Assembly: GCA_038897215.1 (NCBI GenBank)
Contig: JAWAWX010000001.1
Span: forward strand, 288,001 to 352,000
Source: Acidilobaceae archaeon
GTDB taxonomy: Archaea > Thermoproteota > Thermoprotei_A > Sulfolobales > Acidilobaceae
DNA length: 64,000 nucleotides
Direction of reading: 5' to 3'
Under the pieces are notes generated by a model. That model ran no database searches. It was given only the letters and a program-made list of their open reading frames with translations, and was not told the DNA's origin. The translations under genes were made by a program, and so were the position numbers. This document shows, one piece after another, positions 25,429-43,724 of this stretch (positions are counted from its first letter, which is position 1; each line of letters begins with the position of its first letter).

Positions 25429-25902
25429 ATGCCTAGAGTAGCTGTGCTGATGGGTAGTAAGAGCGACTGGGAGGTCATGAAGCCAGCTGTCGAGACTCTT
25501 CGAGAGTTCGGAGTAGACGTCGAGGTCAGAGTCCTGTCTGCTCACAGAACTCCAGAGGAGCTGAGAGAGTACGTCATGACAGCTGCCGAGAGAGGAATCG
25601 AGGTCATAATCGCTGGAGCAGGCGGAGCAGCCCACCTACCCGGGGTCGTAGCCTCTCTGACTCACCTACCAGTCATCGGGGTTCCCGTCCCATCCCAGTA
25701 TCTGAATGGCCTCGACTCGCTATTCTCAATCGTCCAGATGCCTTCAGGAGTCCCCGTAGCCACTGTAGGCATAGGTTCTGCTAGAAACGCTGCACTCCTA
25801 GCTGTCAGGATACTGGGCCTCAAGTACCCCGAGCTAGTCGAGAAGCTACGCGAGCACAGAGAGAAGATGAGGAGAGAGACTTTATCCGCTAAGCTAGAAT
25901 AA
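25429..25902 (+). CDS. purE: N5-CAIR mutase / AIR carboxylase
   Basis: [33 protein letters not shown]. Confidence 0.97.
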
Positions 25903-25904
25903 GC

Positions 25905-26996
25905 TTATGTAAGAACCTTCTCCAAGACCCCTCTTCGAGCGGCTTCCTTAATCTCTCTAGCTATCCTCCTCCCCATAGACATAGGCTCGCTCCAGTAGAG
26001 GTATGAGTAGGGGCTTCCAGCCACGTAGAGATTAGTTCCAGCCACGATGCGCCCAGAGAACTCGAACACTTTGATATTCATGTCTCTATCGATAACAGAC
26101 TCTAGACAGAAAGGTCCGATGATGCCTGGAGGGCTCAGCCTCCGGGTAGCTTCAACGAATCTCACACCATACTCCATGTACTTTACTAAAATACTCTCTC
26201 TAAGAACTAGAGGGATGTTGCCCACTACTGTGAAAGTAGGGTCTACGAGAGTGCCGCTAGCGAGCCAAGAGGGGATTCTGGATATTCCATCGATATCGCT
26301 CTCGTACCTGATATCGGCTCCCAGTATCTCGACTCTATCGAAGAGAGGGCTGTAGAAGTAGTGCACGTAAGCCGTTACCCCTAAGACGTACTCTTGCACT
26401 ATGACCTCTCTAGGCGAGGATATAGCGCCGGAGGCTACGAGACTCTCTACTCTCCTCCTCACAGCTTCGGGGTCTTTCTCGATGAAGTAGCCTCTACCTC
26501 CTTTAGCTCCAGGAAGCTTGACTATAACCAGCCCATGGAAAGGCTCTCCTACCTCGTAGGTTCTAGGCGTGGGGATCCCGGCTTCTCTCAGAAGCCTCAT
26601 CTTCTCATGCTGGTTAGCTTCAACTCTGAATATTGACCGCAAGCCGAAGATAGGTAGCTCTACTCCTTCAGCACAATCCATGCCCACGTACTCGACGAAG
26701 CTACCGTGCGGTATCAGGATACTGTTCTCTTCTCGCAGAGTCTCCACGACCTCGGGCTTGCAGAGCTCTCTCCACTCGTCAACCACCACGAATCTATCAG
26801 ATAGATGCTTGAACTGCTCGTAGAACCACAGTCTCCTCTTCTCGACAACCAGCAGTGTTCTAAAGCCCTCTGTCTTAGCGCCGTGGAGTATTTGGAGAGC
26901 AGAGTGGCTGGCTAGAGTAGCGATAGAGAGATTGTCGAGGTCGTAGTGGGGAAGAACGCTCTCAACTATGCCTCCACGCGCTCTAAGAGACTCCAT
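25905..26996 (-). CDS. purP: PurP-family ATP-grasp formate ligase (FAICAR synthetase-like), paralog 1
   Basis: SHSALQI..GAK.EG, PHGSFVEY, GAKGGRGYF, RYES, FEFSGRIVAGTN. Confidence 0.92.
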   Translation of the reverse strand: MESLRARGGIVESVLPHYDLDNLSIATLASHSALQILHGAKTEGFRTLLVVEKRRLWFYEQFKHLSDRFVVVDEWRELCKPEVVETLREENSILIPHGSFVEYVGMDCAEGVELPIFGLRSIFRVEANQHEKMRLLREAGIPTPRTYEVGEPFHGLVIVKLPGAKGGRGYFIEKDPEAVRRRVESLVASGAISSPREVIVQEYVLGVTAYVHYFYSPLFDRVEILGADIRYESDIDGISRIPSWLASGTLVDPTFTVVGNIPLVLRESILVKYMEYGVRFVEATRRLSPPGIIGPFCLESVIDRDMNIKVFEFSGRIVAGTNLYVAGSPYSYLYWSEPMSMGRRIAREIKEAARRGVLEKVLT

Positions 26997-27191: not shown

Positions 27192-27959
27192 ATGACATTG
27201 AAGCTCATATACGAGGGTAAGAGTAAGCTTGTCTACGAGCTAGACTCAGATAGGTTAATCATAGAGTTCAAGGACGACGTGACGGCAGGAGATGGAGCGA
27301 TAAGAGCCAAGGCTCCCGGCAAGGACGTTCTATGCGCTAGAACCTCTGCACACCTATTCTCTCTGCTATCCAGCTCGGGGATAGACACGCACATGCTAGA
27401 GTTCGATGGCAATAAGAGGATGACTGTGAAGAGGCTCAACATGATACCTCTAGAGGTGATCGTGAGAAACGCTGCCTACGGGTCTCTCCTAAAGCGAATG
27501 CCCAAGTTCAAGAGCCTTCAGCTCTTCACCACCCCCCTCGTCGAGTTCCACTATAAAGACGACTCTCTCCACGACCCGCTAGTGCTACCCGAGGACGTGC
27601 TATACGCTGGCGTATTGGACGAGGAGCAGCTCGAACTCGTTAAGGAAGTCTCGCTCAAGGCTAACAGAGTTCTGTACGACTACCTCTCGAGCAAGGGGTT
27701 GCTACTAGTCGATATCAAGTTCGAGTTTGGCTTCGCGAAAGACGGGAGCATAGTGCTAGCCGACGAGATATCGGGAGACACCTTCAGAGTCATAGATGAG
27801 AAAGGGAGACACCTAGACAAGGAGATTTTCAGGAAGACGAGAGACACGAGAGCCCTGATCGAGGCCTACCTAGAGCTAGCTAGAAGGCTTGATATAAGAG
27901 TAGACGACGTTCAAGCTCTAGCTCAGCAAAATCTGAGGGGACTCTATGACGCTGAGTAG
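27192..27959 (+). CDS. purC: SAICAR synthetase
   Basis: YEGKSK, FKDDVTA, IPLEVIVRN, YKDD..HDP, VDIKFEFG, LADEI, LDK. Confidence 0.96.
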   Translation: MTLKLIYEGKSKLVYELDSDRLIIEFKDDVTAGDGAIRAKAPGKDVLCARTSAHLFSLLSSSGIDTHMLEFDGNKRMTVKRLNMIPLEVIVRNAAYGSLLKRMPKFKSLQLFTTPLVEFHYKDDSLHDPLVLPEDVLYAGVLDEEQLELVKEVSLKANRVLYDYLSSKGLLLVDIKFEFGFAKDGSIVLADEISGDTFRVIDEKGRHLDKEIFRKTRDTRALIEAYLELARRLDIRVDDVQALAQQNLRGLYDAE

Positions 27960-30129
27960 CGCTGAGATAGACGAGATCAAGAGGATCCTGGGGAGAGAGC
28001 CGACGCTCGAAGAGCTGGCCATGTTTGAAGCTCAGTGGAGCGAGCACTGCTCCTACAAGAGTAGCAGACTCCTCCTTAGACTACTGCCGACTGAGGGCAA
28101 GCACGTAGTGATAGGGCCTGGTAGAGACGCTCCAGCCGTCGAGGTGTTCCCCGGGATTCTGGTCGCTTTCAAGATAGAGAGTCACAACCACCCGTCCGCT
28201 GTAGACCCGTACAATGGAGCCGCTACTGGTGTTGGAGGCGTTGTCAGAGACATACTCACACTCGGAGCAGAGCCGGTAGCTATACTCGACCTCCTATACC
28301 TAGGAGACCCGAGAGACGAACACGCTTCTCGATTAATTAAGGGCATAGTGAGAGGTGCGAGCGACTACGGTAGAGGAATAGGTGTCCCCACGGTTGCGGG
28401 AGACTCCTTCTTCGACCCAATCTTCAATAAGCAACCTCTCGTGAACGTGGGCTGTGTTGGAGTCCTCCCGAAGAGCAGACTCCTTACTGGAGCTCCGAGA
28501 GCTGGGGACGCGATAATGGTGATAGGTAGACCTACTGGGAGAGATGGAGTGCTAGGCAGTAGCTTCGCATCCAAGCCTCTCGAGGAGGAGGCTGGAGAGC
28601 AGTCTAGCGTCGTGCCTACAGGCGACCCTCGAGTAGAGAAGCTTCTCATAGAGGCTGTTCTTCAACTAAGTAGCCGCGGGCTAGTGCGCTACGTGAAAGA
28701 CCTTGGTGGAGGAGGGCTCACGACAGCTGTCTCTGAGACAGCTGCTGAGCACTCGCTCGGGGCAACGATATACCTCGATAGGCTTCATGCAGTAAAAGGG
28801 ATGACCCCCCTCGAGCTTCTAGTATCGGAGACTCAGGAGCGGATGATGCTAGTAGTAGAGCCCTCTAAGATAGCCGAGGTCTCGAAGACTCTTGAATCGC
28901 TAGGTCTAAGCTATAGCGTGATAGGGTATTTCGACGACTCGGGTAGAGTGAGAGCCTACTATGAGGGCAGGCTCGTAGCAGACGTGCCGGCCAGAGAGCT
29001 AGCCAAGCCTAGAGCAATCAAGAGAGAGTCCCGCCCGCCTCTCGAGGCGCTCAAAGGGCTCACTCCCCCGAGGCTACCCGAAGAGCCGAGAGACCTGTCT
29101 GAAGCATTACTAAAGGTGCTCTCATCGCCTAATGTAGCGTCCAAGAGGTGGATATTCGAACTATACGATAGCGATGTAGGAGGCAGAACGGTCCTCAAGC
29201 CGGGCTATGGCGATGCTGCTGTTATAAGGCTACCGTACGATGGAGGTAGAGGCTTAGCCGTTAAGGGCGACGCTAACCCGCGCTACACCTCTCTAGACCC
29301 ATTCAGTGGAGCAGCTAACTCTGTGGGAGAGTGCTTCAGAAACCTGTCGGCTGTGGGCTCAAAGCCTCTAGCTATAGTAGACCAGCTCAATGCAGGCAAC
29401 CCAGAGGTGCCGGAGCAGTTCTGGTACTTTGAGATGATGGTCAAAGGAGTAGCGTGGATGAGCAAAGAGCTAGGCGTGCCGGTCGTCGGCGGCAAGGTCA
29501 GCCTATACAATACAGACCAGACCGGCAGGCAGATCAAGCCGACTACAGCCATAATCGGGATAGGTCGAGTCGATAATGTTGAAAACGTGATGAGCATGAG
29601 CTTCAAGGAGGAGGGAAGCTACATAGTCGCAGTAGGTACAACGTATCCAGAGCTCGGAGCCACTGAGTATCTATACGTGGTGCACGGGATCGAGGAGGGA
29701 GAGGTTCCAAAGCCTAGACCCGCCTCCGAGTTAAGACACTCACTCTTCGTTAGAAGCGCTATAAGGAAAGGATTAGTCTTAGCGGCGCACGATGTGAGCT
29801 CAGGCGGTATAGCTGCCGCTCTCTCAGAGATGGCGATAACCGGGGGTCTAGCGTTCGAGATCGAATTGAACACTGTGCCGTCTCGAGGCATAACGAGACT
29901 AGACGAGCTCCTCTTCTCGGAGACTCAAGCGAGATACCTGCTCGAAGTCCGTAGAGACAGACTGGAGAGACTGCTGAGGCTCGCTAGAAGGCTGGGAGTA
30001 GACGCTAGCGTGATAGGGAGAACTACTAGAGGCAAGAGGGCAGTGTTCAGATTCGAGAATAGGGAAGTCTTCAGTATAGACATGGAGGAAGCTAGATCTG
30101 CTTACGAGAATCCCTCGAAGGTCATGTAG
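27946..30129 (+). CDS. purL: FGAM synthase, small-type PurL (synthetase subunit)
   Basis: WSEHCSYKSS, ESHNHPS, GAATGVGG, DLGGGG, SETQERM, AHDVSSGG. Confidence 0.97.
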   Translation: MTLSSAEIDEIKRILGREPTLEELAMFEAQWSEHCSYKSSRLLLRLLPTEGKHVVIGPGRDAPAVEVFPGILVAFKIESHNHPSAVDPYNGAATGVGGVVRDILTLGAEPVAILDLLYLGDPRDEHASRLIKGIVRGASDYGRGIGVPTVAGDSFFDPIFNKQPLVNVGCVGVLPKSRLLTGAPRAGDAIMVIGRPTGRDGVLGSSFASKPLEEEAGEQSSVVPTGDPRVEKLLIEAVLQLSSRGLVRYVKDLGGGGLTTAVSETAAEHSLGATIYLDRLHAVKGMTPLELLVSETQERMMLVVEPSKIAEVSKTLESLGLSYSVIGYFDDSGRVRAYYEGRLVADVPARELAKPRAIKRESRPPLEALKGLTPPRLPEEPRDLSEALLKVLSSPNVASKRWIFELYDSDVGGRTVLKPGYGDAAVIRLPYDGGRGLAVKGDANPRYTSLDPFSGAANSVGECFRNLSAVGSKPLAIVDQLNAGNPEVPEQFWYFEMMVKGVAWMSKELGVPVVGGKVSLYNTDQTGRQIKPTTAIIGIGRVDNVENVMSMSFKEEGSYIVAVGTTYPELGATEYLYVVHGIEEGEVPKPRPASELRHSLFVRSAIRKGLVLAAHDVSSGGIAAALSEMAITGGLAFEIELNTVPSRGITRLDELLFSETQARYLLEVRRDRLERLLRLARRLGVDASVIGRTTRGKRAVFRFENREVFSIDMEEARSAYENPSKVM

Positions 30130-30144
30130 GAGAAGTGAAGCCTC

Positions 30145-31509
30145 TTGGGAGGGCTCGCGGGATACCTGGGTGGAGACAGCCCTCTCACATATCTATCGCT
30201 ATTGTTACTCGAGGTTATGCATAGAGGCTGGGGTTCCGTAGGGCTATCCGTACTCTTCTCTAGGCAAAACAGGAGAGCGATAGCCTCCAGATACTATAAC
30301 GAAGGGTGGTGGCACAGCCTCCTACTCGCGTCGATAAGGAGAGCTGATGGAGGTACCGGGAGCCAGAGAGAGGTCTTGGGAGGAGTGGGGTACGTTGGAG
30401 AGAGCTTCAACATAGCTCAGCCTGCTACATACAAGCTGAATGGCTTCGAGATAGCTGTAGCCATAGACGGCAAGATACTCAATCTGAGCGAGATAGCCTC
30501 CTCGCTGGGGCTAGCTGAGACCGAGGATAAGCCAGATACTCTGGCTCGAGTGCTCTCCGTTCTCTCCCGCGAGCATGGAGGGGACGTGGTCGAAGCTGTG
30601 AAGACCTTGGTTAAGACAGCTGTGGGAGGCTTCAGCCTCATAGCTATCACCTCAGAGCCTAGGCTGGTCGCAGCGAAAGACGCTCAGGGATTCAAGCCTC
30701 TCTCCTACGCTACCTCAGACTCCTACATTGCTGTAGCTTCTGAGACCTCTGCTCTCCAGAGCTTGGGCTTCGAGTGGAGAGAGCTAGACGCTGGCTCTGT
30801 CCTCTCCTTCGATGGAAGGAGCCTAGAGGTGTCTCGAGCTGAGGCTACTACAGCTACCCCCTGTGCTTTCGAGTACGTGTATCTATCTAGACCGGACTCT
30901 GTCTTCAACAACGTCTCCGTCTACTCAGCTAAATTCAATATGGGGAGAGAGGTTGCTAGAAGGTCGTTCGTGAAGGCAGACATAGTCGTGCCATTACCTG
31001 AGAGCGGTCGCGTAGCTGCTCTAGGCTACAGTAGAGAGAGCGGTATACCTCTAGAGGAGGCCGTCTACACTGTCAGGTATACTGGCAGAAGCTTCCTAGC
31101 TCCCAAAGAGGTTAGAGATATCGTTGCTGACGCTAAGTATGGAATCGTGAAGAGCGTTGTGAAAGACAAGTCTATAATCATCGTGGACGACTCTATAGTC
31201 AGAGGGACGACTGTACGCAGGCTCTCCCTGAAGCTGAGGTCTGTGGGAGCTCGAGAAATCCACTTGAGGATCGCGAGCCCCAGGCTGGCACACCCCTGCC
31301 CGATAAGTAGCGAGATGAAACTACAGGACCTAGCTGCTCGCAACGAGTCTTTGCGAGAAGCGCTAGCCGGCATTGCTAGCTTGCACCACAACACAATCGA
31401 GGGCCTGAGGAACGCCATAGGCTTAGACTCGCTCTGCACAGCCTGCTTCTCGGGAGAGTGCCCTCTCACTCGAGGACGCGACTTGTGGAACCGGGGTGGA
31501 GGGCTCTGA
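30145..31509 (+). CDS. purF: Amidophosphoribosyltransferase homolog 1: PRTase domain intact, glutaminase domain degenerate
   Basis: CAFEYVY.SRPDS, PESG, VDDSIVRGTT, PC, LCTACF. N-terminus MGGLAG has no Cys, and an in-frame stop lies just upstream (30136). Confidence 0.9.
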   Translation: MGGLAGYLGGDSPLTYLSLLLLEVMHRGWGSVGLSVLFSRQNRRAIASRYYNEGWWHSLLLASIRRADGGTGSQREVLGGVGYVGESFNIAQPATYKLNGFEIAVAIDGKILNLSEIASSLGLAETEDKPDTLARVLSVLSREHGGDVVEAVKTLVKTAVGGFSLIAITSEPRLVAAKDAQGFKPLSYATSDSYIAVASETSALQSLGFEWRELDAGSVLSFDGRSLEVSRAEATTATPCAFEYVYLSRPDSVFNNVSVYSAKFNMGREVARRSFVKADIVVPLPESGRVAALGYSRESGIPLEEAVYTVRYTGRSFLAPKEVRDIVADAKYGIVKSVVKDKSIIIVDDSIVRGTTVRRLSLKLRSVGAREIHLRIASPRLAHPCPISSEMKLQDLAARNESLREALAGIASLHHNTIEGLRNAIGLDSLCTACFSGECPLTRGRDLWNRGGGL

Positions 31510-32768
31510 CAGCGCTTCTCGGCGTTCTCGCGTTCGACGATATCTGGAACGTCTCGCCCATGGTTAGATACGGCTTGCTATCGTTAAGACACAGAGGTGA
31601 CAGCATCTACCTCTTATGCTATAGCGATGGAGCTGAGGTATCGTGCGAGGAGTTCAAGTCTTTGAGTAAGATGTCTTCGCGAAGCTACTCTGTAGCCGTA
31701 GCCGGTGTGCTCCGCTCTAGGCAAGCGAGCTCTGTATACGCAATGGGGGAAGCGTCGGGGCGCAGAGTCGCGGTGATAGCCTCCAGAGAGTATGAAGCTT
31801 TAGAGGAGGTCGCTTCCGCGATAGCTTCAGCTATGGCTAGTGATAGACTCGAGAAGTGGCTAGACCTCTTTGAGAAGCCAGAGCTCGCCGACGATCTCCC
31901 ATCGTTTATAGCATTGACGGATAGAGGAGATGTAATCGCTTACCGAGACTCTCTAGGGCTCACTCCTCTAGCTCTCGGAGGCTACGGCTTCGACTTAGCG
32001 ATAGTAGCTTCCGAGTCTTCGGCTATAGACGTTCTTGATGGAGACGTAAAGCGCCACCTAGAGCCTGGCGAGAGCATTCTGGTCTCGAGGAGGCTCGTCA
32101 AGAGCTGGAGGACGAGAGCTAGACCAGTCGGGCTATGCCTCTTCGAGCTACTATACATGGCTAGACACGACTCTATAGTCGACGGAGTCAGCGTCTACGA
32201 GTTCAGGAAGGCTCTAGGAGCTCGGCTAGCTGATAGAATGCAACAACGTGAGAGAGTAGACGTTGTGGTAGGAGTTCCCGAAAGCGCTACACCCTACGCG
32301 ATAGGCTTGGCTAACGCGTTAAGAAAACCCTACGATATCGCGTTCGTTCCCACTAAGCGAGTCAGGTCGATGCTGAAGTCGAGCCCTCTACACAAGCTGA
32401 TCGCGATCCACTTGAAGATGAACCCTATCAGGAGCTCTATCGAGGGGAAGCGAGTAGCCATAGTGGATGACAGCATGGTCACGGGAGCGACAGCAAAGAC
32501 TGTCTCTCAGTTGCTGAGACTGAGGATTGGAGCAGAGGAGGTCCACTTCCTCGTAGCGAGCCCGCCGATAGTGGAGAAGTGCCCCTACTCGCTGATGAAG
32601 TTCGATAAGGATAGCTTAGTCGCGGCAAACCTCACGAGCTCCGACATAGAGGATTATCTGGAAGTCGACTCGCTCACATGGCTCTCCCTAGAGGACGTGA
32701 GGCGAGAAGCTGAAGCGAGAGGCATACGAGTCTGCGATAAGTGCTTTGGGAGCGTGAGAGAGAGATGA
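31506..32768 (+). CDS. purF: Amidophosphoribosyltransferase homolog 2 (crenarchaeal purF-2 type)
   Basis: LLGVLAFDDIWNV..YGL..L.HRG, CLFELLY.AR.DS, VDDSMVTG, CPY, CDKC. Probable CTG start in a CTGA overlap with the purF1 stop (ORF-track GTG 31458 is the alternative). Confidence 0.85.
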   Translation: MTALLGVLAFDDIWNVSPMVRYGLLSLRHRGDSIYLLCYSDGAEVSCEEFKSLSKMSSRSYSVAVAGVLRSRQASSVYAMGEASGRRVAVIASREYEALEEVASAIASAMASDRLEKWLDLFEKPELADDLPSFIALTDRGDVIAYRDSLGLTPLALGGYGFDLAIVASESSAIDVLDGDVKRHLEPGESILVSRRLVKSWRTRARPVGLCLFELLYMARHDSIVDGVSVYEFRKALGARLADRMQQRERVDVVVGVPESATPYAIGLANALRKPYDIAFVPTKRVRSMLKSSPLHKLIAIHLKMNPIRSSIEGKRVAIVDDSMVTGATAKTVSQLLRLRIGAEEVHFLVASPPIVEKCPYSLMKFDKDSLVAANLTSSDIEDYLEVDSLTWLSLEDVRREAEARGIRVCDKCFGSVRER

Positions 32769-34282
32769 AGGTGCTGGTAGTAGGGTCAGGGGGCAGAGAG
32801 CACGCTCTCGTGAAGCTTATTAGAGCGAGTTCTATCGAGCCCAGAGTCTACGTGGTGATGGATTACGCAAACCCCGGGCTGAAGAGAGAAGCTGAGGAGT
32901 CTAGAGGCTCTTGGTTCGTAGCGTCTACAACCAAGCCTGGTAATGTGGTCGGAATAGCGGAGCTCGTAAACCCAGACCTCATCGTAGTAGGACCCGAGGA
33001 GCCTCAGTTCGCTGGAGTAACCGATGCTCTGAGAGAGAAGGGGTTCACTGTTTTCGGAGCTGATTCTGATTGCGCTGAGATAGAGAAGAGTAAGGTTTTC
33101 GCTAGAAGCCTAATGTGGAAGTATAACATTCCTGGAAGGCTCTTCTTCAAGGCATTCAAGAGTCTCGATGAGGCCTCTAAATTCATCGAGTTCGCTGGAG
33201 ACGTGGTAGTCAAGCCTGCTAGACAAGCTGGAGGCAAGGGCGTCAAGGTGTTGAGAGACACTAAAGCGTATCTCAGCGTAGACAAGAGCAGAGTTAAGAG
33301 AACGTACATAGACAAGCTCTACGACATGATGCGCTCCTACTCAGACATAGAGTACAAGATCCTCGTAGAGCAGAGAGTAGAGGGAGTGGAGTACACAGCT
33401 CAGGTAATCACAGACGGCGAGACACTACTGCCTCTACCTCTAGCTCAAGACAATCCCCACGCGTACGAGTTCGACATAGGCCCGGAGACTGGAGGCATGG
33501 GTAGCATAATGGGTCCAGGCTATCTGCTACCTATGATAACAGAGAGCGAGTTTAAGAAGACCATAGAGATCGTGGAGAGTAGCCTCAAGGCTCTACAGGC
33601 TGAGAAGAAGAAGCCGTATGTCGGAGCGATCGCGGGTCAGATGATGCTAACAGGGCTCTGGGGGCCTACAGTGATAGAGTTCTATAGCAGATTCGGAGAC
33701 CCCGAGATAGCCAACCTAGTGCCCCTACTGGACTCAGACTTCCTCGAAGTCTTGGAGAGAGCAGCTACGAGGAGACTCGCTGGAGCCAAGATTAGAGTGA
33801 AGGATGGGCTAGTCAGCGTGGTCAAAGCCGTAGCTCCCTCAGGTTACCCTGATGACAGAGAAGCTGCGACAGGCCACGCGGTAGTAGTCGATGAGAGGAG
33901 GATCTCGGAGCTAGGATGCATCACTCTATACGCTAGCGTCGAGGAGATAGATGGGAGAGTCTACACGAAAGGGTCTAGAGTAGTCGAGATCGTGTGTAGT
34001 GGCGAGAGCTATAGAGAAGCGTACACGAAATCGGAGAAAGCGGTGCTCAACGTATCTAGTCTCGATGGGTGGCCGCTATTCCATAGGAGCGACGTAGGGT
34101 CGCCTCGAGTGATAGAAGAGAGAGCTAGGCTAGCAGAGAGAGTCAGGAGAGTCTATCTCTCTCGAGCAGCCCGCGGGCTACTAGGCAGGCAGCTCGTATG
34201 GCTCCCCGGGGAGGGCGTGATAGAGAACCCCCTAGTTACGGGGGTCAAGAGAGATAGAGGAGGTGGAGTCTTTGCGCCGTAG
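32765..34282 (+). CDS. purD: Phosphoribosylamine-glycine ligase
   Basis: MKVLVVGSGGREHA, GPEEP, AGGKGV, GPETGGMG, RFGDPE. ATGA overlap at 32765. Confidence 0.96.
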   Translation: MKVLVVGSGGREHALVKLIRASSIEPRVYVVMDYANPGLKREAEESRGSWFVASTTKPGNVVGIAELVNPDLIVVGPEEPQFAGVTDALREKGFTVFGADSDCAEIEKSKVFARSLMWKYNIPGRLFFKAFKSLDEASKFIEFAGDVVVKPARQAGGKGVKVLRDTKAYLSVDKSRVKRTYIDKLYDMMRSYSDIEYKILVEQRVEGVEYTAQVITDGETLLPLPLAQDNPHAYEFDIGPETGGMGSIMGPGYLLPMITESEFKKTIEIVESSLKALQAEKKKPYVGAIAGQMMLTGLWGPTVIEFYSRFGDPEIANLVPLLDSDFLEVLERAATRRLAGAKIRVKDGLVSVVKAVAPSGYPDDREAATGHAVVVDERRISELGCITLYASVEEIDGRVYTKGSRVVEIVCSGESYREAYTKSEKAVLNVSSLDGWPLFHRSDVGSPRVIEERARLAERVRRVYLSRAARGLLGRQLVWLPGEGVIENPLVTGVKRDRGGGVFAP

Positions 34283-35492
34283 AGAGTTCCTCACGACCCC
34301 CCTCTTCGGAGACTCTTTGAAGATACTGATGTTGGGGGGCGGAGAGCTCGGCAAGGAGGTCGCTATAGAGGCTCAGAGACTTGGAGTCGAGGTAGTGGTC
34401 GTCGATAGATACGATTGGGCGCCAGCTATGCATGTAGCTCATAGGAGATACGTTGTCGACATGATGAACCCCAATGCCGTCAAGGCGATAGTAGAGAGAG
34501 AAAAGCCTGACCTGATAGTCCCAGAGATAGAGGCTATAGCGACAGATGCTCTCCAAGAGCTAGAAGAGAGAGGCTACACGATTGTGCCTAACGCTAGAGC
34601 CGTCGGGATAGCAATGAATAGAATAGAGCTGAGAAGATTCGCCGCTGAGACTCTCCAGCTTCCTACAGCGAGGTACGCTATAGCGGCTAACGAGGAGGAG
34701 GCCTACGAGGCCTGCGAGAAGGTAGGGTACCCGTGTCTCCTGAAGCCGGAGATGAGTAGTAGCGGTTTGGGTCACGTTAAGGTCAGCGAGTCTAGTAGAG
34801 AGAGTGTAGCGAAAGCGTACCAGTACGCGATAGCGCACGCTAGAGGCAAGAGTAGGAGAGTCATAGTCGAGGAGTTCCTAAACCTAGCCACGGAATTCAC
34901 TATACTCACCTACAGATACGTCTCCGAAGACGGAGGCGTAGCCACAGAGACCTGCGAGCCCGTAGAGCACTGGAGATACGGGCAGTACCACTACATCGAG
35001 TCATGGCAACCCTCAGAGAGAGAGCCTAGAGTCTTGGAGGCCGCTAGATCCATCGGCTTGAGGATCGCGGAGAGCCTAGGCGGGCTAGGCATATACGGAG
35101 TCGAGGTCTTCCTGACAGCAGACGGTAGAGTGCTTTTCAGCGAAGTTGCTCCACGACCGCACGATACAGGGATGGTCACCATGGCTAGCCAGGAGCTCAG
35201 CGAGTTCGCTATACACGTGAGAGCAGCTCTAGGACTCCCAGTCCCTAAGCCTAGAGTAGTGTCTCCAGCAGCCAGCATAGCAGTCTACGCTGACAGAGGA
35301 GACGTCTGGGCTCCGAGAATCAGCGGAGTATACGAGGCTCTAAGCATACCGGGAGTCGACCTGAGAGTCTTCGGGAAACCCTACACCTACCCTGGTAGGA
35401 GGGTCGCAGTCGTTCTAGCTAGAGGGTCTAGCGTAGCAGAGGCTCTAGAGAAGGCTAGAAGAGCAGCCTCGAAGCTGAGGGTTGCACAGTGA
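34263..35492 (+). CDS. purT: Formate-dependent GAR transformylase
   Basis: GGGELGKEVAIEAQRLG, APAMHVA, MSSSG.G, PRPHDTG. Confidence 0.96.
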   Translation: MESLRRREFLTTPLFGDSLKILMLGGGELGKEVAIEAQRLGVEVVVVDRYDWAPAMHVAHRRYVVDMMNPNAVKAIVEREKPDLIVPEIEAIATDALQELEERGYTIVPNARAVGIAMNRIELRRFAAETLQLPTARYAIAANEEEAYEACEKVGYPCLLKPEMSSSGLGHVKVSESSRESVAKAYQYAIAHARGKSRRVIVEEFLNLATEFTILTYRYVSEDGGVATETCEPVEHWRYGQYHYIESWQPSEREPRVLEAARSIGLRIAESLGGLGIYGVEVFLTADGRVLFSEVAPRPHDTGMVTMASQELSEFAIHVRAALGLPVPKPRVVSPAASIAVYADRGDVWAPRISGVYEALSIPGVDLRVFGKPYTYPGRRVAVVLARGSSVAEALEKARRAASKLRVAQ

Positions 35493-36508
35493 GAGAAAAA
35501 GCCTGGACCTACGAGCGCGCAGGAGTCAGCATACCGAAGCAGAGGAGTCTCCACGAGATAGCTCTAGCGGCAGCTAGAGCTGTCAGCGAGCAGCTCAAGG
35601 TAGAAGTCGAGGGCCTAGGAGGCTATGGTGCATCGATGAAGCTAAATGGGTTAAAGCTAATGCTTCACGTAGACGGAGTTGGGACGAAGACCATAGTGCT
35701 GAGAGAGCTCAACAAGCTATGGGTTGCTGGATGGGATTGCATAGCCATGAATGTGAACGATGTTGCTTGCGATAGAGGCAGACCACTAGCCGTAGTCGAC
35801 TACATATCGATGCCTGAAGCAGACAACGAGGCTTTCGCGCAGATAATGGAGGGTATAGCGAGAGCAGCCTTAGAGTCAAAAATAGTCATCCTCGGAGGAG
35901 AGACAGCCATACTCCCAGATTTAGCGTCAGGAGTAGACGTAGTCTGCTCCGTGCTAGCCCTCAAGGAGGGAGAGGTAGAGTCTCTCGAAGAGGGGGACGT
36001 TCTTGTCGGAGTCGAGAGCCTAGGGCTTCACGCAAACGGCTACACTCTAGTGAGGAGACTCCTTAAGCATAAAGGTCTATCCTTCAGCTCTCGCGTAGAC
36101 GACCTGGATCTAAGCGTGGAGCTCTCGAAGCCTACAGCTATCTACTCGAATCTACTCCTCCAAGCCTACCAGCTAGGGCTAGCTAAGAGAGCGGCTCACA
36201 TAACGGGCGGAGGCTTCACCAAGATAAAGAGGATACTGGGGCCTGCTCTAGATGCTCGCATAGCCGCTCCCAAGCCCCCCAGAGTCTTCGAGGTGATCCA
36301 GGAGCTCGGAAGCGTCTCCTCAGAGGAGATGTATAGAGTCTTCAACATGGGGGTAGGGCTAGTAGTCGCCGCTAAGCCTGAGAACGCTGACGACTTGATC
36401 GAGCTAGCAGAGAGACACGGGTTTAGAGCTAGCGTTATCGGCACCATAGCTAGAGGCTCTGGTAGAGTACTCATCGAGACCTGGAGAGGCGAGAAGCTTG
36501 AGCTATGA
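35489..36508 (+). CDS. purM: AIR synthetase
   Basis: YERAGV, DGVGTK, AMNVND, GGETA, GLHANGY, AHITGGG, VFNMGVG. Confidence 0.96.
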
Positions 36509-37619
36509 GAGGAGAGCACGAATAGACCCCTCTAGTCTACTCGATGGATACGACCTGAGAGCTCTCTCCATAGCCTCTATAGCCAGCCACTCCGCTCTAG
36601 ACGTCTTCGACGGAGCTAAAGACGAGGGCTTCAAGACAGTAGCTGTCTGCCAGAAGGGGAGGGAGAAACCATACCTCAGATTCAGGAGGGTAGTCGATGT
36701 AGCGATCGTGCTAGACAAGTTCGCTGATATCGTGAAACCAGAGAACGTAAGCAAGCTGAGGTCATACAACGCGATACTCGTCCCCAATAGGAGCTTCGCT
36801 GTATACGTGGGCTACGATGCGATAGAGGAGAACCTCCCTCTACCCATATTCGGTAATAGATGGCTTCTGAGATACGAAGAGAGGGTAGGTTTCAAAAACT
36901 ATTACACCATATTGGACAAAGCTGGGATAAGGAGACCTAAGACCTTCACGTCTATAGACGAAGTGGATAGACCAGTCATAGTCAAGGTTCCTCATGCAGT
37001 GAAGAGAGTAGAACGAGGCTTCTTCGTAGCAGTAGATAGAGACGACTTAAGCAAGAAGGCTAGAAGACTAGCGGAGAGGGGAGTCATTAGAGAAGAGGAC
37101 CTCAAACACGCCTCCATAGAGGAGCTCGTGCTCGGAGCTCACTTCAACGTGAACTACTTCGTGAGCATAGCTAGAGGAGACGTGGAGATTCTGAGCGTAG
37201 ATAGAAGGATACAGACTGACATAGACGGGTTTCTGAGACTACCCGCGCCCATCCAGCTAGAGCTCTCCGAGCACGCTGACGTCGAGATGATAGAGGTGGG
37301 TCACGAGCCTGTGACGATTAGAGAGAGCTTGTTGGAGAAGCTGTTCGAGATAGGCGATAGATTTGTTGAAGCCGCTCGAGAGATCGAGCCTCCGGGCGTC
37401 ATAGGCCCCTTCACGCTCCAACTCATGGTGACAAAGGATTTGGACGTAGTGGTCTTCGATGTAGCGTTGAGGATAGGCGGTGGGACGAACGCCTATATGG
37501 GGGTCGGGAGCCAGTACAGCAAGCTCTACTTCGGAAAGCCTATCAGCTTAGGGAGGAGGATCGCTATCGAGATCCGAGAGTGCATCGAGCAGGAGTGCTT
37601 AGAGAAGCTGGTGACATAG
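36498..37619 (+). CDS. purP: PurP-family ATP-grasp protein, paralog 2
   Basis: SHSALDV.DGAKDEG, PNRSF, ERGFF, DRRIQ, RIGGGT. Confidence 0.9.
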
Positions 37620-37620
37620 C

Positions 37621-38988
37621 GTGGACGAGCTTAGGTTCTCATGTGTGTTCGAGTGGAGGTATGGCTCTCGGGAGATGAGAGAGCTCTTCACCGCAGAGTC
37701 TATGGTTAAGAAGCTCTTAGACGTCGAGATAGCCCTTCTGAGAGGGCTAGAGGAGGCTGGCTTCGCAGAGAGAGGTTGCGCTGAGGCTATTAAATCGTGC
37801 GTCGAAGAGATCACTGCTAGAGAGGTCTACGAGCTAGAAGCCAAGATAGGGCACGATATAGCGGCTTTAGCGCAGATAGCTGGAGATAGGTGCGGGCCCT
37901 GCGGTAGATTCTTCCATCTGGGAGCCACGAGCTACGATATAGTCGACACTGCTTGGGCTCTCATACTGAGAGATGCTTTAGCTATAGTTAAAAACAGGTT
38001 GGCGAGAGTCATAGACGTCCTCTCCGAGCTAGCGTTGAGGGAAGCTGAGACCCTGATGGCGGGTAGAACACATGGGCAGCACGCTGTCCCCATAACTCTC
38101 GGCTTCAAGCTAGCGAACTTCGCTTACGAACTCTCCCGCGGTCTAGAGAGGATTCTCGACGCAGAGAGGAGGCTTGTGAGATGCAAGATCTCTGGCGCAG
38201 TGGGGACTATGGCCGCGTGGAAAGATAGGGGGCTAGTGGTAGAGGAGACTGCCTGCTCGAGTCTAGGTCTAGAGCCTCACGCTATAACGACGCAGGTGGC
38301 TCCTCGCGATGGATTTGCTGAGATAGCTACAGCTCTAGCTATACTAGCCAGTCAGCTCGATAGGCTTGCTCTAGAGGTGAGAGAGCTCTCGAGAACAGAG
38401 ATCGGCGAGCTCTCCGAGGGAGAGGAGAGAGTCGGGAGTAGCACTATGCCGCAGAAGAGGAATCCGGTGACAGCAGAGAGGGTATCGGGGCTCGCTAGGA
38501 TAGCCAGGTCTCTCTCTATAGCTGCTCTCGAGAACATAGTCTTGATGCACGAAAGAGACCTAACGAATAGCAGTGCTGAGAGAGTACTCATCCCCCACCT
38601 CTTGCTCACAGTAGACCAGATGCTGATAGACACTGAGAGAATGCTGAAATCTCTCGTGGTCGATAGAGAGGCTATGGCTAGAAACTTGGAGCTCACGAGA
38701 GGAGCGATCATGGCCGAGTCTGTCATGATGAAACTCGTCGAGAAAGGAGTCCCCAGACATAGAGCACACGCGATTATCAGAGAGGTATTGAGGAAGACTG
38801 GGGGAGACGAAAGCTTTGCTAACGCTCTACAGAAAGACCCTGTGATATCATCGCTTCTCACACCAGATGAGATCAGAGAGAGTCTAGATTACAAGTCATA
38901 TCTAGGCTCCTACAGACAGCTCGTAGCTAGAGCTTTAGAGTATGCCAGGAGAGTCGCTGACTTAGCGAAAGCTAGCAGTCATCGCTGA
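37621..38988 (+). CDS. purB: Adenylosuccinate lyase
   Basis: [38 protein letters not shown]. Confidence 0.96.
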
Positions 38989-39338
38989 GACCGAATCCGG
39001 AGACCTCGGAAGAAGCACGTTTTGTTTCCCGTATGGCAGGCTGGACCTGTAGCTTCTACTAGGTAGAGTATCGCGTCGTTATCGCAGTCAATTCTTATCT
39101 CTACGACTTTCATGATATTCCCTGAAGTCTCTCCCTTCAGCCACAGCCTCTTCCTACTCCTGCTCCAGAAGTGAGCCAAGCCTGTCGCCACTGTTCTCTC
39201 GATGGCTTCGCGATTAGCGTAAGCTAGCATCAATACATCCTTGGTTCTATAGTCTTGAACCACGACGGGCACTATTCCGCCTGCTTTCTCGAAATCTATG
39301 AGGTCTAGTAGCTGATTAATCTCCAAGGGCTCCGTCAT
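38979..39338 (-). CDS. hisI: Phosphoribosyl-AMP cyclohydrolase (stand-alone, no HisE domain)
   Basis: WSRSR..LW.KGETSGN, DCDND, ACHTG..TCF. Confidence 0.96.
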
Positions 39339-40090
39339 AGTCTCACAGCTATCCCGTTTTCTCTCATGTATTTCTTCACGTCTCTCACAGTGTAGACTCT
39401 GTAGTGGAATACCGAGGCTGCGAGAACAGCTGAAGCTCCTGCTCTCACAGCGTTCACGAAGTCTTTGAGACTACCTGCTCCCCCGCTAGCTATCACTGGA
39501 GAGTCTACAGCTCTGCTTACGCGAGCTATCAGCTCTAAGTCGTAGCCAGCTCTACGTCCATCAGCATCTATTGATGTCAGCAGGATCTCTCCAGCTCCCA
39601 GCTCGACTCCCCTGATAGCCCACTCTACGGGGTCGAGATTGGTCTCGACTTTGCCGCCGTGAGTGAAGACTCTATACCCTCTCTCCGTCATCTTAGCGTC
39701 TATAGCTAGCACTACTGAGCTCGAGCCTAGCTCTCGCGCTAGCTCTCTAATCAGGAGAGGGTTTTGGACTGCTGCAGTGCTGACTGAGACCTTGGACGCT
39801 CCGGCTTTAACTAGGCTTAGAGCGTCATCGAGTCTCCTGATGCCTCCTCCGGCTGTTACCGGTATCGAGACCTCCGCTGAGATCCTGGCAACGAGTTCTC
39901 TGAGAAAGCTCCTCCCCTCTGGAGTAGCTCCTATATCGAGCACCACGATCTCATCGGCACCCTCACTCTCATAGGTTTTAGCGTACTCCACCGGGTCTCC
40001 GATCGCTGCTATGTTCTCGAATCCAACGCCTTTCACTAAAACCCCTCTGTATGTGTCGAGACACGGGATTACTCTAACGTATCTCAACAC
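39335..40090 (-). CDS. hisF: Imidazole glycerol phosphate synthase, cyclase subunit
   Basis: [36 protein letters not shown]. Confidence 0.96.
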
Positions 40091-40802
40091 TCTCCACCTC
40101 GAGGAGCCCTCTTGGGTCTACGAGCTTCTCGTAGAAAGCTCTACCTAAGACAACGCCCCCGAAGCCTTCTCTAGCGAGCAACCTTATGTCGCTAAGAGAT
40201 CTAACGCCTCCAGCGTAGATAACACGCTCTCTATAGCTACGAGGGACCCAGGATAGCTCTTCTTCGCTGAGACCCGACATCGTGCCATCTCTGGTAGTGC
40301 TAGTCATTAGGAAGCGCTGAAACCCTATTCTAGAATAATGTTCTATCGCTTCTGCCACAGTGAGAGAGAGCTCTTCTCTCCAGCCGCTTATAACGACTCT
40401 GCCGTCTCTAGCGTCGACAGCCAGGACTACTCTAGAGCCTCCCATCTCTACGACCTCCTCTCCTCTGAGAACGCCCTTGTACACGCTTGACCCCACGACG
40501 GCTCTATCAGCTACCTCTAGAGCTTTCTCCAAGTCTCTCCTAGTCTTGACTCCTCCCGCTATCGTTACGAATGCCCCTAAGCTCTTGAGGTCTGCAGCGA
40601 GTTTGAGCACGTTCTCGCTCACACTCTTAGCCTCTATAGCGGCCTCTAGGTCTACCAGATGGATTCTTCTAAGCCCTGTGTCGAGGATCCTAGTTGCGAA
40701 GCCTAGAGGGTCGCGTGAGTACACTATGAGGTTCTCCACTCTGCCTCTCACCATTCTAACCACGCTCTCTCTGTAGATGTCTAGAGCTACGTGTATCTCC
40801 AC
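40074..40802 (-). CDS. hisA: ProFAR isomerase
   Basis: ALDI....VVRM..G, HLVDL, GGV, SGW, RDGTMSG, YAGGV. Confidence 0.92.
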   Translation of the reverse strand: MEIHVALDIYRESVVRMVRGRVENLIVYSRDPLGFATRILDTGLRRIHLVDLEAAIEAKSVSENVLKLAADLKSLGAFVTIAGGVKTRRDLEKALEVADRAVVGSSVYKGVLRGEEVVEMGGSRVVLAVDARDGRVVISGWREELSLTVAEAIEHYSRIGFQRFLMTSTTRDGTMSGLSEEELSWVPRSYRERVIYAGGVRSLSDIRLLAREGFGGVVLGRAFYEKLVDPRGLLEVESVEIR

Positions 40803-41383
40803 TACATCTCACCCTTGACGCTAGAAACGCTCTCACCGACTAGGCGGGAGGCTTCTCTGAGAGCTATCCCGAGTCCCTTGAAAGCTGCTTCAGCGACATG
40901 GTGAGGGTCTCTGCCGCTCAGCTTGACTACGTGTAGCGTGAATCTACCCCATAGCGCTAGAGTCTCCAAGAAGTGCTCTACTAGAGTTCCCTCGAGACCC
41001 TCTATTGTGTACCCTCTCAGCTCGAGCTTCACCACGCTATACGGTCTCTTAACGAGGTCTACGGCTACCAGGACTAGAGCGTCATCCATGGGGATGACCG
41101 CGTGCCCGAATCTCCTAATGCCAGCTCTGTCTGTCAGAGCTCTGTCTAGAGCTTCGCCTAGAGCTCTCCCAGTATCCTCCACCACGTGGTGAGCCATGTT
41201 TCCGGAGGCTCTAACTCTCAGCTCTAGACCCCCGTGGTGAGCCATAGTCTCGAGAAGATGGGTTAGGAAGACGCTGGGCGTCTCTACGCTGTAGCCTGCT
41301 CTATCTAGGTCTATCTCGACGACTATATCGACTTCTCTCGTCTTTCTCTCAATACGAGCTCTTCGCTGCCTCAACTCCATCAC
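40802..41383 (-). CDS. hisB: Imidazoleglycerol-phosphate dehydratase
   Basis: HHVVED, IRRFG..IPMDD, HH.AEA.FK. Confidence 0.95.
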   Translation of the reverse strand: MMELRQRRARIERKTREVDIVVEIDLDRAGYSVETPSVFLTHLLETMAHHGGLELRVRASGNMAHHVVEDTGRALGEALDRALTDRAGIRRFGHAVIPMDDALVLVAVDLVKRPYSVVKLELRGYTIEGLEGTLVEHFLETLALWGRFTLHVVKLSGRDPHHVAEAAFKGLGIALREASRLVGESVSSVKGEM

Positions 41384-42440
41384 GTATCACGCTCTCAACA
41401 TAGCCTAGTAGATTCTCGGGGGGCAGAGAGATCCTGATGTACGAGTCCCCCCTCCTAAACAGCCCCTCGTATGCTCTGATACACACTCCTCTCATAGAGG
41501 TCTCCTCGCTCAAGCGCTTAGCCGAGACTGCCGCTTTGGCTAGGATGAAGTTAGTCTGAGTGTCGTAGACTCTGAGCTCCGGGACCTCGCTTAAGCGAGC
41601 GACTAGAGCCCTCCTAATCCTTCGAGCTCTCTCCACACACTCCTCGAAGTACTTGGAGAGCGTGAGAGCAAGCAGTCCGGCTCGTAGAGCGATAGAGTTC
41701 ACCTGGTAGGGGAGTCTGAGAGTCTTCAGGAGTCCGGCTAGATGAGGCTCTGCTATGACGTAACCCAGCCTTAAGCCAGCTAGCCCAAACGTCTTAGAGA
41801 ACGACCCGACTACCGCTAGGTTCTCACTGCTGCCAGCAATGCTTCTCGAGTCGTCCGCGAACATGAGGTATGTTTCATCGACAACCACTAAGCCTCCCGC
41901 GTTCTCTACAGCGCTCCTCACGACTTCACTACCCAGCCTGTTGCCTGTAGGATTGTTGGGGTCACACAGTAGAACTACATCAGCTCTAGACGCTTTCTCA
42001 GCCAAGTCTTCTGCCTCGATTCTGAACGTCTCCTCCTCGATATCGACAAACTCTACCCTGAAGCCCTTCACTCTGCTTAGCGATACGTAGACGCTATAGC
42101 TAGGCTTTAGAGATACCGAGAGAGGGCTAGGATTCCGAGAGGCTAGTTTAACAGCGTCTAGCAGAAGGCTTATAGCCTCGTCGGCTCCACTAGTCACTAC
42201 GACCATATCCGGGTCTACCGAGCGCCTCTTAGCTAGAGCCTCCTCTAGCTCAGCCTCCAGCTCTGGAGCCGGGTAGAGTCTAGGGTCGGCTTCAGACACG
42301 GCTCTCGAGACTAGCTCCTCGATGAACTCCTTGGGTACTAGTAGATTCTCGTTCTTGTCTAGAGGGAGAGCGCATCGACCAGAAGGCTTCTCGTACTTCA
42401 GCTCGCTCAATCGAGAGCAAAGCTCTCTCCACAACTGCAC
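41349..42440 (-). CDS. hisC: Histidinol-phosphate aminotransferase
   Basis: LDKNEN, GADEAI, PNNPTG, DETY, SFSKTFGLAGLRLGY; located in the his operon. Confidence 0.92.
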   Translation of the reverse strand: MQLWRELCSRLSELKYEKPSGRCALPLDKNENLLVPKEFIEELVSRAVSEADPRLYPAPELEAELEEALAKRRSVDPDMVVVTSGADEAISLLLDAVKLASRNPSPLSVSLKPSYSVYVSLSRVKGFRVEFVDIEEETFRIEAEDLAEKASRADVVLLCDPNNPTGNRLGSEVVRSAVENAGGLVVVDETYLMFADDSRSIAGSSENLAVVGSFSKTFGLAGLRLGYVIAEPHLAGLLKTLRLPYQVNSIALRAGLLALTLSKYFEECVERARRIRRALVARLSEVPELRVYDTQTNFILAKAAVSAKRLSEETSMRGVCIRAYEGLFRRGDSYIRISLPPENLLGYVESVIRDGVEAAKSSY

Positions 42441-43724
42441 TCAGTACCCACCCTTTATCGATAGCAGATGGAGGGGGAAGCCTTCCTCCTCGGCTATCGG
42501 CTCTACTTCTCTAGCTATCTTCTCTAAATCGCTCCTCCCTCCTTTGAATTTAACTCTCCTCCTCACGACTAGGAAATCGAGGACAGAGAGTCCTCCTCTC
42601 CATCTAGCCCATCCCGATGTAGGGAGGATGTGGTTGACTCCTGAGTAGTAGTCGTTTATAGCTGTTGAGACACAGCCGTCTATGAGTACTCCATAGTTTT
42701 CAATCATGTCGACTATCTCGCCTGAATCGCTACAAATCTCGACGTGCTCGGGACTCATGTAGTTGATGAACTCCGCGACTAGAGAGAGGCTGTCTGCCAC
42801 CACGATCTTTGGGGTTGCGAGCTTACCGCGTGTGTAAGCGTAGAGCTTCTCGCTGATATCCTCGTAGACTCTCAAGAGATTAGCTGCCACTTCTCTGTCT
42901 CTGGTTACAGCCACTATAGTCGAGGATTCGCCGTGCTCTGCTTGAGCTGCTAGGTGGAGAGCTATCTCTCGCTCTAGTCCTCTTTTATCCACGTAGACTA
43001 CGAGCTCTGTGGGCCCAGCGAGCATGTCTATCCCGACGTCGCGCGATACCAGGATCTTGGCTGCCGTATAGTACGGCCCGCCGGGCCCCGCTATCTTGGA
43101 GACTCTCTCAACACTCTGAGTCCCGTACGCTAGAGCCGCTACTCCATAGGCTCCACCAGCTAGGTATAGCTTATCGAACCCGGTTATCGCTAGAGCTGCT
43201 AGAAGACTCTTGGATAGAGACCTGGGGGGCGTGAAAGCCACTACTCTCCTGACTCCAGCTATTCTAGCCGTAGCTCCGCACATGACCGCTGTCGATATGT
43301 ATGGCGCCATGGCTCCCGGCACGTAGCAGGCAACGCTATCGATTGGCTTGACCTCCTCTTCAACCACTATGCTCTCATCTACTCTAATAGTCCACGAGGC
43401 TCCAGCGATGCTCGATAGAGGCCGCTCTACGCTCCTCACTCTATCCGCTAGCTTCCTCAAAGAGTCTACGAGAGCCGGCTTCTCGGCTTCCACCTCGCTT
43501 AGAGCAATCTCTAGCTCGTTTTTCTCAACGCTAAGCTTATCTCTAGTGAGCTTCACTCCATCGAGTCTCTCAGCGTAATCTATGAGAGCATCATCGCCCC
43601 GCTTTCTGACATCCGCGACTATAGGCTTAACCGCCTCAATGTATCTATCGTAGTCTAGCTCTAGCCTGATGGCTCTCGCTAGCGTCTCCGCGCTTTCTCT
43701 AGAAGACACCTCGAAGACTCTCAT
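42441..43724 (-). CDS. hisD: Histidinol dehydrogenase
   Basis: YVPG, KIAGPG, DMLAGPTE, QAEH, PEH, DY.SG.NHILPT. Confidence 0.95.
   Translation of the reverse strand: MRVFEVSSRESAETLARAIRLELDYDRYIEAVKPIVADVRKRGDDALIDYAERLDGVKLTRDKLSVEKNELEIALSEVEAEKPALVDSLRKLADRVRSVERPLSSIAGASWTIRVDESIVVEEEVKPIDSVACYVPGAMAPYISTAVMCGATARIAGVRRVVAFTPPRSLSKSLLAALAITGFDKLYLAGGAYGVAALAYGTQSVERVSKIAGPGGPYYTAAKILVSRDVGIDMLAGPTELVVYVDKRGLEREIALHLAAQAEHGESSTIVAVTRDREVAANLLRVYEDISEKLYAYTRGKLATPKIVVADSLSLVAEFINYMSPEHVEICSDSGEIVDMIENYGVLIDGCVSTAINDYYSGVNHILPTSGWARWRGGLSVLDFLVVRRRVKFKGGRSDLEKIAREVEPIAEEEGFPLHLLSIKGGY

Follow-up and report, generated by a model that had tools for sequence, protein, structure and literature searches.

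The window analysed here is a 64,000-nucleotide stretch from a closed 1.16 Mb genome of the Acidilobaceae, and it carries a purine gene cluster and a his operon (Table 1). The genome is metagenomic, with a completeness rating of 89.7%; the contig ends share a 127-nt overlap, and it is therefore a closed circle. An earlier note on this DNA had pointed out that purC overlaps purL and leaves no room for purS or purQ, and that hisB abuts hisA with no hisH between them. Both observations stand. In the sister species purS and purQ occupy the site of the purC/purL junction, which was reproduced here in independent assemblies from several runs, and base 40802 is common to the stop of hisB and the start of hisA (TAGTG), whereas the closest operons have the order G-D-C-B-H-A-F-I. 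The longest open reading frame of PurF' begins at 31458. No match was obtained in a promoter scan with a bacterial-type model, and cluster reads numbered zero in 3% of each of two metatranscriptomes from a single study.

Table 1. Features of the window, with positions counted from its first nucleotide
Feature	Position	Strand	Remarks
Tryptophanase/tyrosine phenol-lyase family enzyme	16072-17514	+	candidate internal ammonia source (putative role)
purE	25429-25902	+	remainder of purine cluster
Second purP	25905-26996	-	remainder of purine cluster
purC	27192-27959	+	3' end overlaps purL by 14 nt
Small PurL, 727 aa, without PurS/PurQ	27946-30129	+	
PurF, Cys1 to Gly, eroded glutamine site	30145-31509	+	
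PurF', known Cys-less crenarchaeal paralog	31506-32768	+	probable CTG start overlapping purF stop
purD-purT-purM-purP-purB	32741-38988	+	intact, purifying selection
his operon, G-D-C-B-A-F-I	38979-44701	-	all frames intact
HisF	39335-40090	-	catalytic Asp12/Asp131 kept; Asp99 to Ser, Gln124 to Ser
hisB abutting hisA, site of hisH deletion	40074-41383	-	

Searches of the closed genome with Pfam models and profiles built from relatives found neither PurQ nor PurS, and HisH was likewise absent genome-wide; no intact copy of these genes and no Cys1-bearing purF lies elsewhere. PurQ accompanies PurL in 45/45 high-quality genomes searched, a survey that left out 29 Sulfolobaceae with PurL and did not count six other PurQ-negative genomes in which purL lies at a contig edge. 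HisH accompanies HisF in all 50 genomes searched, four other HisH-negative but incomplete genomes not being counted. No clear match to HisE was detected, and operon relatives that keep hisH also lack it.

The synthase partners retain their catalytic motifs, as had been claimed: His34 and His80 in PurL, which passes its family cut-off, the PRPP-binding motif in PurF and the two aspartates in HisF. PurL is nonetheless altered, with substitutions at near-invariant columns (I138A, N143R, R144G, Q224P, S296T, Q406L, E410D and F520L), Gln224 being elsewhere invariant. Because we take Gln224 to be an FGAR-binding residue, its replacement by proline could impair catalysis. The PurQ-less enzymes have 17, 18 and 22 near-invariant columns changed, as against 3 in PurQ-bearing sisters, and I138A, R144G, Q224P and S296T pick out exactly the three PurQ-less proteins among 120 close PurL clusters; S296T and F520L are weak evidence alone because they are common in distant PurLs. 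I138A maps to the wall of the ammonia tunnel, R144G to the modelled PurQ face and Q224P to the tunnel gate. The E. coli residues aligned with positions 138/139 and 143 are A374/N378, which form the tunnel wall in Salmonella PurL (PMC7124931), and position 224 aligns to E. coli Q471, which would correspond by its numbering to human Q485 of gate 4 (PMC13013826).

Interface residues for this textbook PurL-PurQ pair were drawn from a structural model used only for contact listing (score 0.90 versus 0.00 for the best control; contact agreement at least 95%; partner pLDDT at least 91), and the mark for such models is attained by 58/80 solved pairs and 2/110 mismatched pairs. The modelled PurL of the sister species superposes on 3VIU with a TM of 0.92. 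On the modelled PurQ face, 10 of the 14 conserved columns have changed in one or more of the PurQ-less PurLs (p ~ 2e-6), and consensus matches at 34 interface positions fall to 18-20 in PurQ-less from 26-31 in PurQ-bearing proteins. Two distant PurLs found through the same substitution signature have no purS or purQ adjoining purL; P0474 lies on a 2.8-kb contig and has no bearing on the signature. In the bacterium that carries L383, Cys1 of PurF is kept and the loss is therefore confined to purSQ in the operon.

The nucleophile of PurF has changed from Cys1 to Gly; the protein starts TTG-Gly-Gly, and an in-frame stop just upstream of this start leaves no propeptide in which a Cys could lie. 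Of the glutamine site, the glutamine-binding Arg, the oxyanion Asn and the Asp are also lost, and the protein scores below the TIGR01134 cut-off, while the PRPP-binding motif and four Fe-S cysteines are kept. The PRTase half of PurF, with 12 conserved columns changed, is more eroded than PurF', in which conserved columns are essentially intact (1/52 changed) and the PRPP motif is deviant. A review of purine-making Crenarchaeota found a Cys-bearing PurF in every one examined and PurF' to be Cys-less in all (PMC3261824). The earlier statement that both PurF homologs lack Cys1 is thus true of the sequences, but only one of the two represents a loss. In HisF, the Asp99 position, now Ser, is that of T. 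maritima D98, which contacts HisH (PMC8115485).

Further glutaminases have been altered. GuaA carries Gly in place of its nucleophilic Cys, a state confined to this genus (Cys in 83/85 homologs); the class I oxyanion strand is not kept either, and its N-terminal model score falls below the cut-off and its C-terminal score above. The PdxT nucleophile is Ser here and Gly in G212, with Cys in nine others. Nothing can be read from the absence of TrpG, since of the trp operon only a TrpB homolog remains, and NadE does not count as a loss because every relative searched has the short ammonia type. The earlier note went too far in proposing that all glutaminase modules were lost and that glutamine or glutamine synthetase may be dispensable. 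Since CarA, PyrG, GlmS, GatA and GatD are intact and a conserved glutamine synthetase is encoded (glnA scores above the TIGR00653 cut-off), the organism cannot dispense with glutamine.

Comparison with relatives places these changes in sequence. The sister species G001 has lost HisH, the PurF Cys and the GuaA Cys and keeps PurSQ and PdxT; loss was stepwise and G001 is an intermediate stage. Two genomes of another family, G212 and G213, have independently shed purSQ along with the Cys, Arg and oxyanion Asn of PurF, and purQ is kept in seven of their congeners. The AU test rejects a single origin of the PurQ-less PurLs (p=7e-23), and a purL transferred from one PurQ-less lineage to the other was likewise rejected, including by this test. 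A literature search found no paper on such losses in archaea.

All of the synthases remain under purifying selection. The 18 pur/his reading frames are open, pN/pS is 0.10-0.49 for all genes, and dN/dS of PurL is ~0.2 between the two PurQ-less species. Conserved columns are kept in PurD, PurT, PurM, PurC and PurF'; divergence is faster in PurF, HisA and HisC than in the remaining genes.

These patterns make it probable that five glutamine amidotransferases have been converted to free-ammonia synthases fed by internal catabolism. Free ammonia most likely drives these steps because the glutaminase halves are lost, the synthase halves are selected and a second lineage has matching changes. The earlier note's proposal of free-ammonia feeding thereby gains support from the GuaA and PdxT losses, the intermediate sister and the eroded partner surfaces. 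PurF/PurF', PurL, HisF, GuaA and PdxS would take NH3 from the cytoplasm. Where the glutaminase was a separable subunit (PurQ, together with its adaptor PurS, and HisH) it was deleted; where it was fused or scaffolding (the PurF and GuaA domains and PdxT) it was kept minus the catalytic Cys. Glutamine is still produced, and still consumed by the five intact glutaminases. The inner gate of PurL normally opens upon a signal from the glutaminase; in PurL the docking face for PurQ was subsequently lost, and the tunnel wall and inner-gate Gln were altered, changes that could open the ammonia tunnel. Use of ammonia in vivo is made plausible by its acceptance by Cys1-mutant PurF and by HisF alone (PMC3261824, PMC3896937). 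C. glutamicum remains able to grow after deletion of hisH (PMC3896937); enterobacterial hisH mutants are auxotrophs even with ammonia.

Amino-acid catabolism may supply the ammonia, with help from the pKa of ammonium, which is low at 80-90 C. The suggestion of an ammonium-rich hot spring fared poorly: one known habitat is alkaline as well as hot and contains little ammonium, and a single survey of Gumingquan, the one identified spring, put ammonium below the detection limit (PMC3812992). Into such water, cells would be expected to lose NH3. The genome has no gene for an ammonium transporter, and neither does the control genome G028.

Low environmental ammonium would also suit a scheme in which glutamine, for which glnA is intact, is still the donor and the orphan synthases are docked to, or clustered with, another glutaminase, either one of the five intact enzymes or an amidase not recognised as such. 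We consider this improbable: the docking faces of PurL and HisF have decayed, the docking place in PurF and GuaA is filled by their own fused domains, and PdxT, the nearest class I candidate, lacks its own Cys. Unchannelled leakage from such an enzyme would be free ammonia, and hence falls within the preferred explanation. It is still harder to credit that the pathways are dying, with purines, histidine and B6 salvaged and the glutaminases merely first to go, even though the genome is small, the trp operon is already lost, purL is absent from most of the family (found in 4/66) and PurF, HisA and HisC diverge quickly. Besides the open frames, the PurF, GuaA and HisF glutaminase losses predate the split of two species, since when synonymous sites have become saturated, yet synthase halves are 65-81% identical. 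Decay is confined to glutaminases and their contact surfaces, and identical substitutions in two lineages are unexpected under neutral decay. An assembly or binning artefact, which a metagenomic and nominally incomplete genome might invite, is negligible given the closed circle, identical junctions in contigs from several runs and two studies, and point substitutions common to three species.

Within the free-ammonia reading, the first step could differ, with PurF' as the enzyme that uses ammonia and the Cys-less PurF as a structural partner. PurF' has been proposed to be ammonia-dependent (PMC3261824) and in both lineages its conservation exceeds that of PurF (77-79% versus 59-65%), but PurF has the canonical PRPP motif, Fe-S ligands and purifying selection while the PRPP motif of PurF' is deviant, and we regard this variant as rather unlikely. 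More tentatively still than the conversion itself, at somewhat less than even chances, glutaminase loss may be a repeatable route, joined to an adaptive PurL set (I138A, R144G, Q224P) that yields an efficient stand-alone ammonia ligase. Two archaeal lineages would then have shed the GuaA, PurF, PurL and PdxS glutaminases in similar order, and that of HisF in one lineage, with PyrG, GlmS and GatD kept; in PurL, the tunnel might be propped open and the Km for NH3 lowered.

The usual view makes glutamine the obligatory donor of these enzymes in vivo and confines their use of ammonia to a test-tube side reaction. Small PurL with its catalytic histidines resembles that of the PurLQS complexes of T. 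maritima and B. subtilis (3D54) and T. thermophilus PurL (3VIU), from which it differs in the absence of PurQ/PurS and in changes to its docking face, to the wall of its tunnel and to the gate Gln. The tandem purF-purF', with PurF' lacking Cys1, matches the crenarchaeal pair (Brown et al. 2011, PMC3261824), except that here the true PurF is also Cys-less and its entire glutamine site eroded. HisF keeps the fold and catalytic aspartates of the HisF-HisH IGP synthase, but, unlike in that enzyme and the C. glutamicum deletion, hisH has been deleted naturally and the D98 contact lost; a 2013 review knew of no other IGP synthase working without its glutaminase in vivo (PMC3896937). Nitrogen-donor switches are also represented by short NadE, vertebrate CPS I, which derives from a glutamine-dependent enzyme, and the carbamate-kinase-type CPS of Pyrococcus (PMC3376133, PMC6022934). 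Those are single enzymes, whereas here five enzymes in three pathways are affected, stepwise and in parallel in a second lineage, and CPS has remained of the glutamine type. These natural enzymes come with sister-species controls and intermediate stages of a switch seemingly made twice. Several questions thereby become testable: the identity of the residues gating the ammonia tunnel of PurL, the function of PurF' (open since 2011) and the reason for the resistance of CTP synthase, CPS and GlmS to the switch. Scoring purQ- or hisH-less genomes as auxotrophs is unwarranted, and thermostable ammonia-using synthases may find use in cell-free nucleotide synthesis.

The glutaminase partners of PurL and HisF are missing from the source genome (G000). 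As the earlier note had read from the window, purC overlaps purL (14 nt shared) with no room for purS/purQ, and hisB abuts hisA without hisH, base 40802 being common to both genes; in the nearest his operons hisH sits precisely between these two. Both junctions are identical in independent assemblies, and the genome-wide profile search that the note had called for (Pfam, TIGRFAM and custom profiles) found no PurQ, PurS or HisH in G000. Within the same order, PurL was accompanied by PurQ in 45/45 high-quality genomes searched and HisF by HisH in 50/50 genomes searched. The two ends of the single G000 contig (1,159,524 nt) share 127 nt, which fall in an apparent rRNA gene, so the contig represents a closed chromosome. 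Its his operon is closer to that of another family (G041-G046; HisG 68-69%) than to its own family's (~30%), which suggests transfer; hisE is missing from these operons, with only weak PRA-PH matches elsewhere.

Other glutaminases are also damaged. GuaA has a broken oxyanion strand and Gly at the nucleophile, which is Cys in 83/85 homologs, the two exceptions being G000's genus, and PdxT has Ser in place of its nucleophile. In PurF, Cys1 is replaced by Gly, and the glutamine-binding Arg, the oxyanion Asn and the Asp are gone. Both PurF homologs do lack Cys1, but only PurF represents a loss; the second is the paralog PurF', which lacks the Cys across the Crenarchaeota and for which ammonia use had been suggested earlier (PMC3261824). 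As the PRTase half of PurF is more eroded than PurF', either paralog could catalyse step one. The claim that all glutaminase modules were lost was wrong, since the catalytic residues of CarA, PyrG, GlmS, GatA and GatD are all in place, and glutamine synthetase is not dispensable as had been supposed: glnA is present, above the family cut-off and 75% identical to the sister species' gene. Judging by these genes, glutamine is still made and used.

The sister species (G001; Acidilobaceae MAG GMQP_201705_bins_18, 1.10 Mb, 98% complete by CheckM) has no hisH, and its PurF and GuaA are both without their Cys; purS-purQ and PdxT are retained intact. In a third species, which still has purQ, PurF position 1 is Ala. 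These patterns place the PurF, GuaA and HisH losses in a common ancestor and those of PurSQ and PdxT later, in G000. MAG GMQP_202101_bins_10, from the same spring as the sister, has an identical PurF, and both MAGs are classed in genus DSZV01 (PMC11094006).

Among close homologs just one further full-length PurF without the Cys turned up (P0021), and it pointed to two uncultured Sulfolobales from a different family, G213 and G212. In each genome purE directly adjoins purL in the interior of a contig, and PurF carries Cys1 to Gly and Asn to Asp and has lost the Arg; purQ is kept in seven congeners. PdxT of G212 has Cys to Gly. The GMP synthase of this genus (372-400 aa) comprises the ATP-pyrophosphatase half only, with a ~60-aa insert, and no separate glutaminase subunit was found in the five genomes searched (four <90% complete); among six congeners searched, guaB turned up only in G212 and G213. 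In these two genomes PyrG and GlmS remain intact, as does GatD in G213. The PurL tree places G000 beside its sister and G212/G213 among their own congeners, and a single clade of PurQ-less PurLs was rejected (AU test, p=7e-23).

At 203 near-invariant PurL columns, G000 has 17 changes, G212 18 and G213 22 versus 3 in PurQ-bearing sisters, although high counts also occur in a handful of controls that are divergent or truncated. Seven changed columns are common to both lineages (p ~1e-6), and I138A, R144G, Q224P and S296T mark exactly the three PurQ-less proteins among the 120 closest PurL clusters. Modelling the sister's PurL together with PurQ, a step that served for listing contacts only (score 0.90, best control 0.00, though so textbook a pair may pass by memorisation), puts 14 conserved columns on the PurQ face; at 10/14, one or more of the PurQ-less PurLs differ. 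Positions 138/139 and 143 align with E. coli A374 and N378, whose counterparts form the tunnel wall in Salmonella PurL, and 224 aligns with Q471, which we take to correspond to human Q485 at the ammonia tunnel's inner gate. The catalytic histidines are kept; Q224P may have come at a cost to substrate binding. As a check on the prediction from this signature, the gate Gln was missing in 3 of ~146 distant PurL domains; purS/purQ lay beside purL in 0/2 with usable context, one of which adjoins a glutaminase-less GMP synthase. HisF of G000 and its sister has Ser for both D98, which touches HisH on activation, and Q123, residues invariant in 16 controls.

Purifying selection still acts on the synthases. 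All pur and his frames are open (18/18), and guaB and purA are present. Between G000 and its sister, synonymous sites are near saturation and pN/pS is 0.10-0.45; the GuaA synthase half (81% identity) and HisF (73%) are conserved despite glutaminase loss before the split. Between the PurQ-less PurLs of G212 and G213, dN is 0.12 and dS 0.59, similar to neighbouring genes. On sequence grounds, decay is limited to the glutaminases and the surfaces formerly meeting them.

To these losses, their order, convergence, selection and positions of change, which are observed, we add the prediction, which we consider probable, that free ammonia feeds these pathways through glutaminase-less synthases; PurF/PurF', PurL, HisF, GuaA and PdxS would take NH3 from the cytoplasm. 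In vitro, small PurL, GuaA and PdxS also accept ammonia. Cys1-mutant PurF (PMC3261824) and isolated HisF use it, and C. glutamicum grows without hisH (PMC3896937). At pH 7.0-7.5, the standard pKa formula gives an NH3 share of total ammonia of ~13-32% at 80 C versus 1-4% at 37 C, which would lower the barrier to its use; since all hyperthermophiles share this effect, it is insufficient as an explanation. The ammonia supply is the weak point of this reading. The proposed ammonium-rich hot spring conflicts with one survey of Gumingquan, where ammonium was below detection (PMC3812992); the pool of the GMQP MAGs is at 82-87 C and pH 9.3-9.6. No Amt transporter was found in the G000 genome. Likelier sources would be deamination inside the cell, by glutamate dehydrogenase or a tryptophanase-family enzyme, or sediment microsites.

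This is a real, repeated and probably ammonia-fed variant of known pathways. NadE, CPS I and Pyrococcus carbamate kinase are known ammonia users, but single enzymes, and in the open-access literature, to which our search was confined, we found neither the PurL signature nor any natural case of glutaminase loss across several archaeal enzymes described. The PurF homologs P0026 and P0127 retain Cys1, but their glutamine-site Arg and oxyanion motifs fail the pattern match, possibly an earlier stage of loss in a further lineage.

Coordinates and gene order of features in G000 and comparison loci
Feature	Location	Description
purine cluster		purE, purP, purC, purL, purF, purF', purD, purT, purM, purP, purB
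his cluster	window 38979-44701	hisG-D-C-B-A-F-I, convergent with purine cluster
purF' start	window 31506-31509	probable CTG overlapping purF stop (CTGA), GGAGG site ahead
thi4	window 24038-24844	upstream of purE; thiC there in sister
shikimate cluster	window 44938-54405	complete-looking, kept despite trp operon loss (TrpB homolog excepted)
GuaA	genome 645248-646768	
PdxT	genome 387418-388026	
glnA-nadE	G000:C1:473116-475362 (outside window)	glnA adjoins short ammonia-type nadE; same in G001 and G028
second glmS-like gene	G000:C1:49466-51320 (outside window)	Cys-less; frameshift near 50065, an apparent ~59-nt tandem duplication; sister's copy intact (630 aa); GlmS/GlmS' pair parallels PurF/PurF'
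G212/G213-genus GMP synthase	L378:541-1677	
G212/G213-genus GMP synthase	L376:1458-2579	
G212/G213-genus GMP synthase	L375:550-1677	
JGI metagenome cluster	L384:2750-7554	glutaminase-less GMP synthase (336 aa), purB, PurL without gate Gln
bacterial-type operon	L383:2966-5842	purE-purB-purC-purL-purF-purM-purN; purC abuts purL, no purS/purQ; PurL without gate Gln, yet PurF retains Cys1
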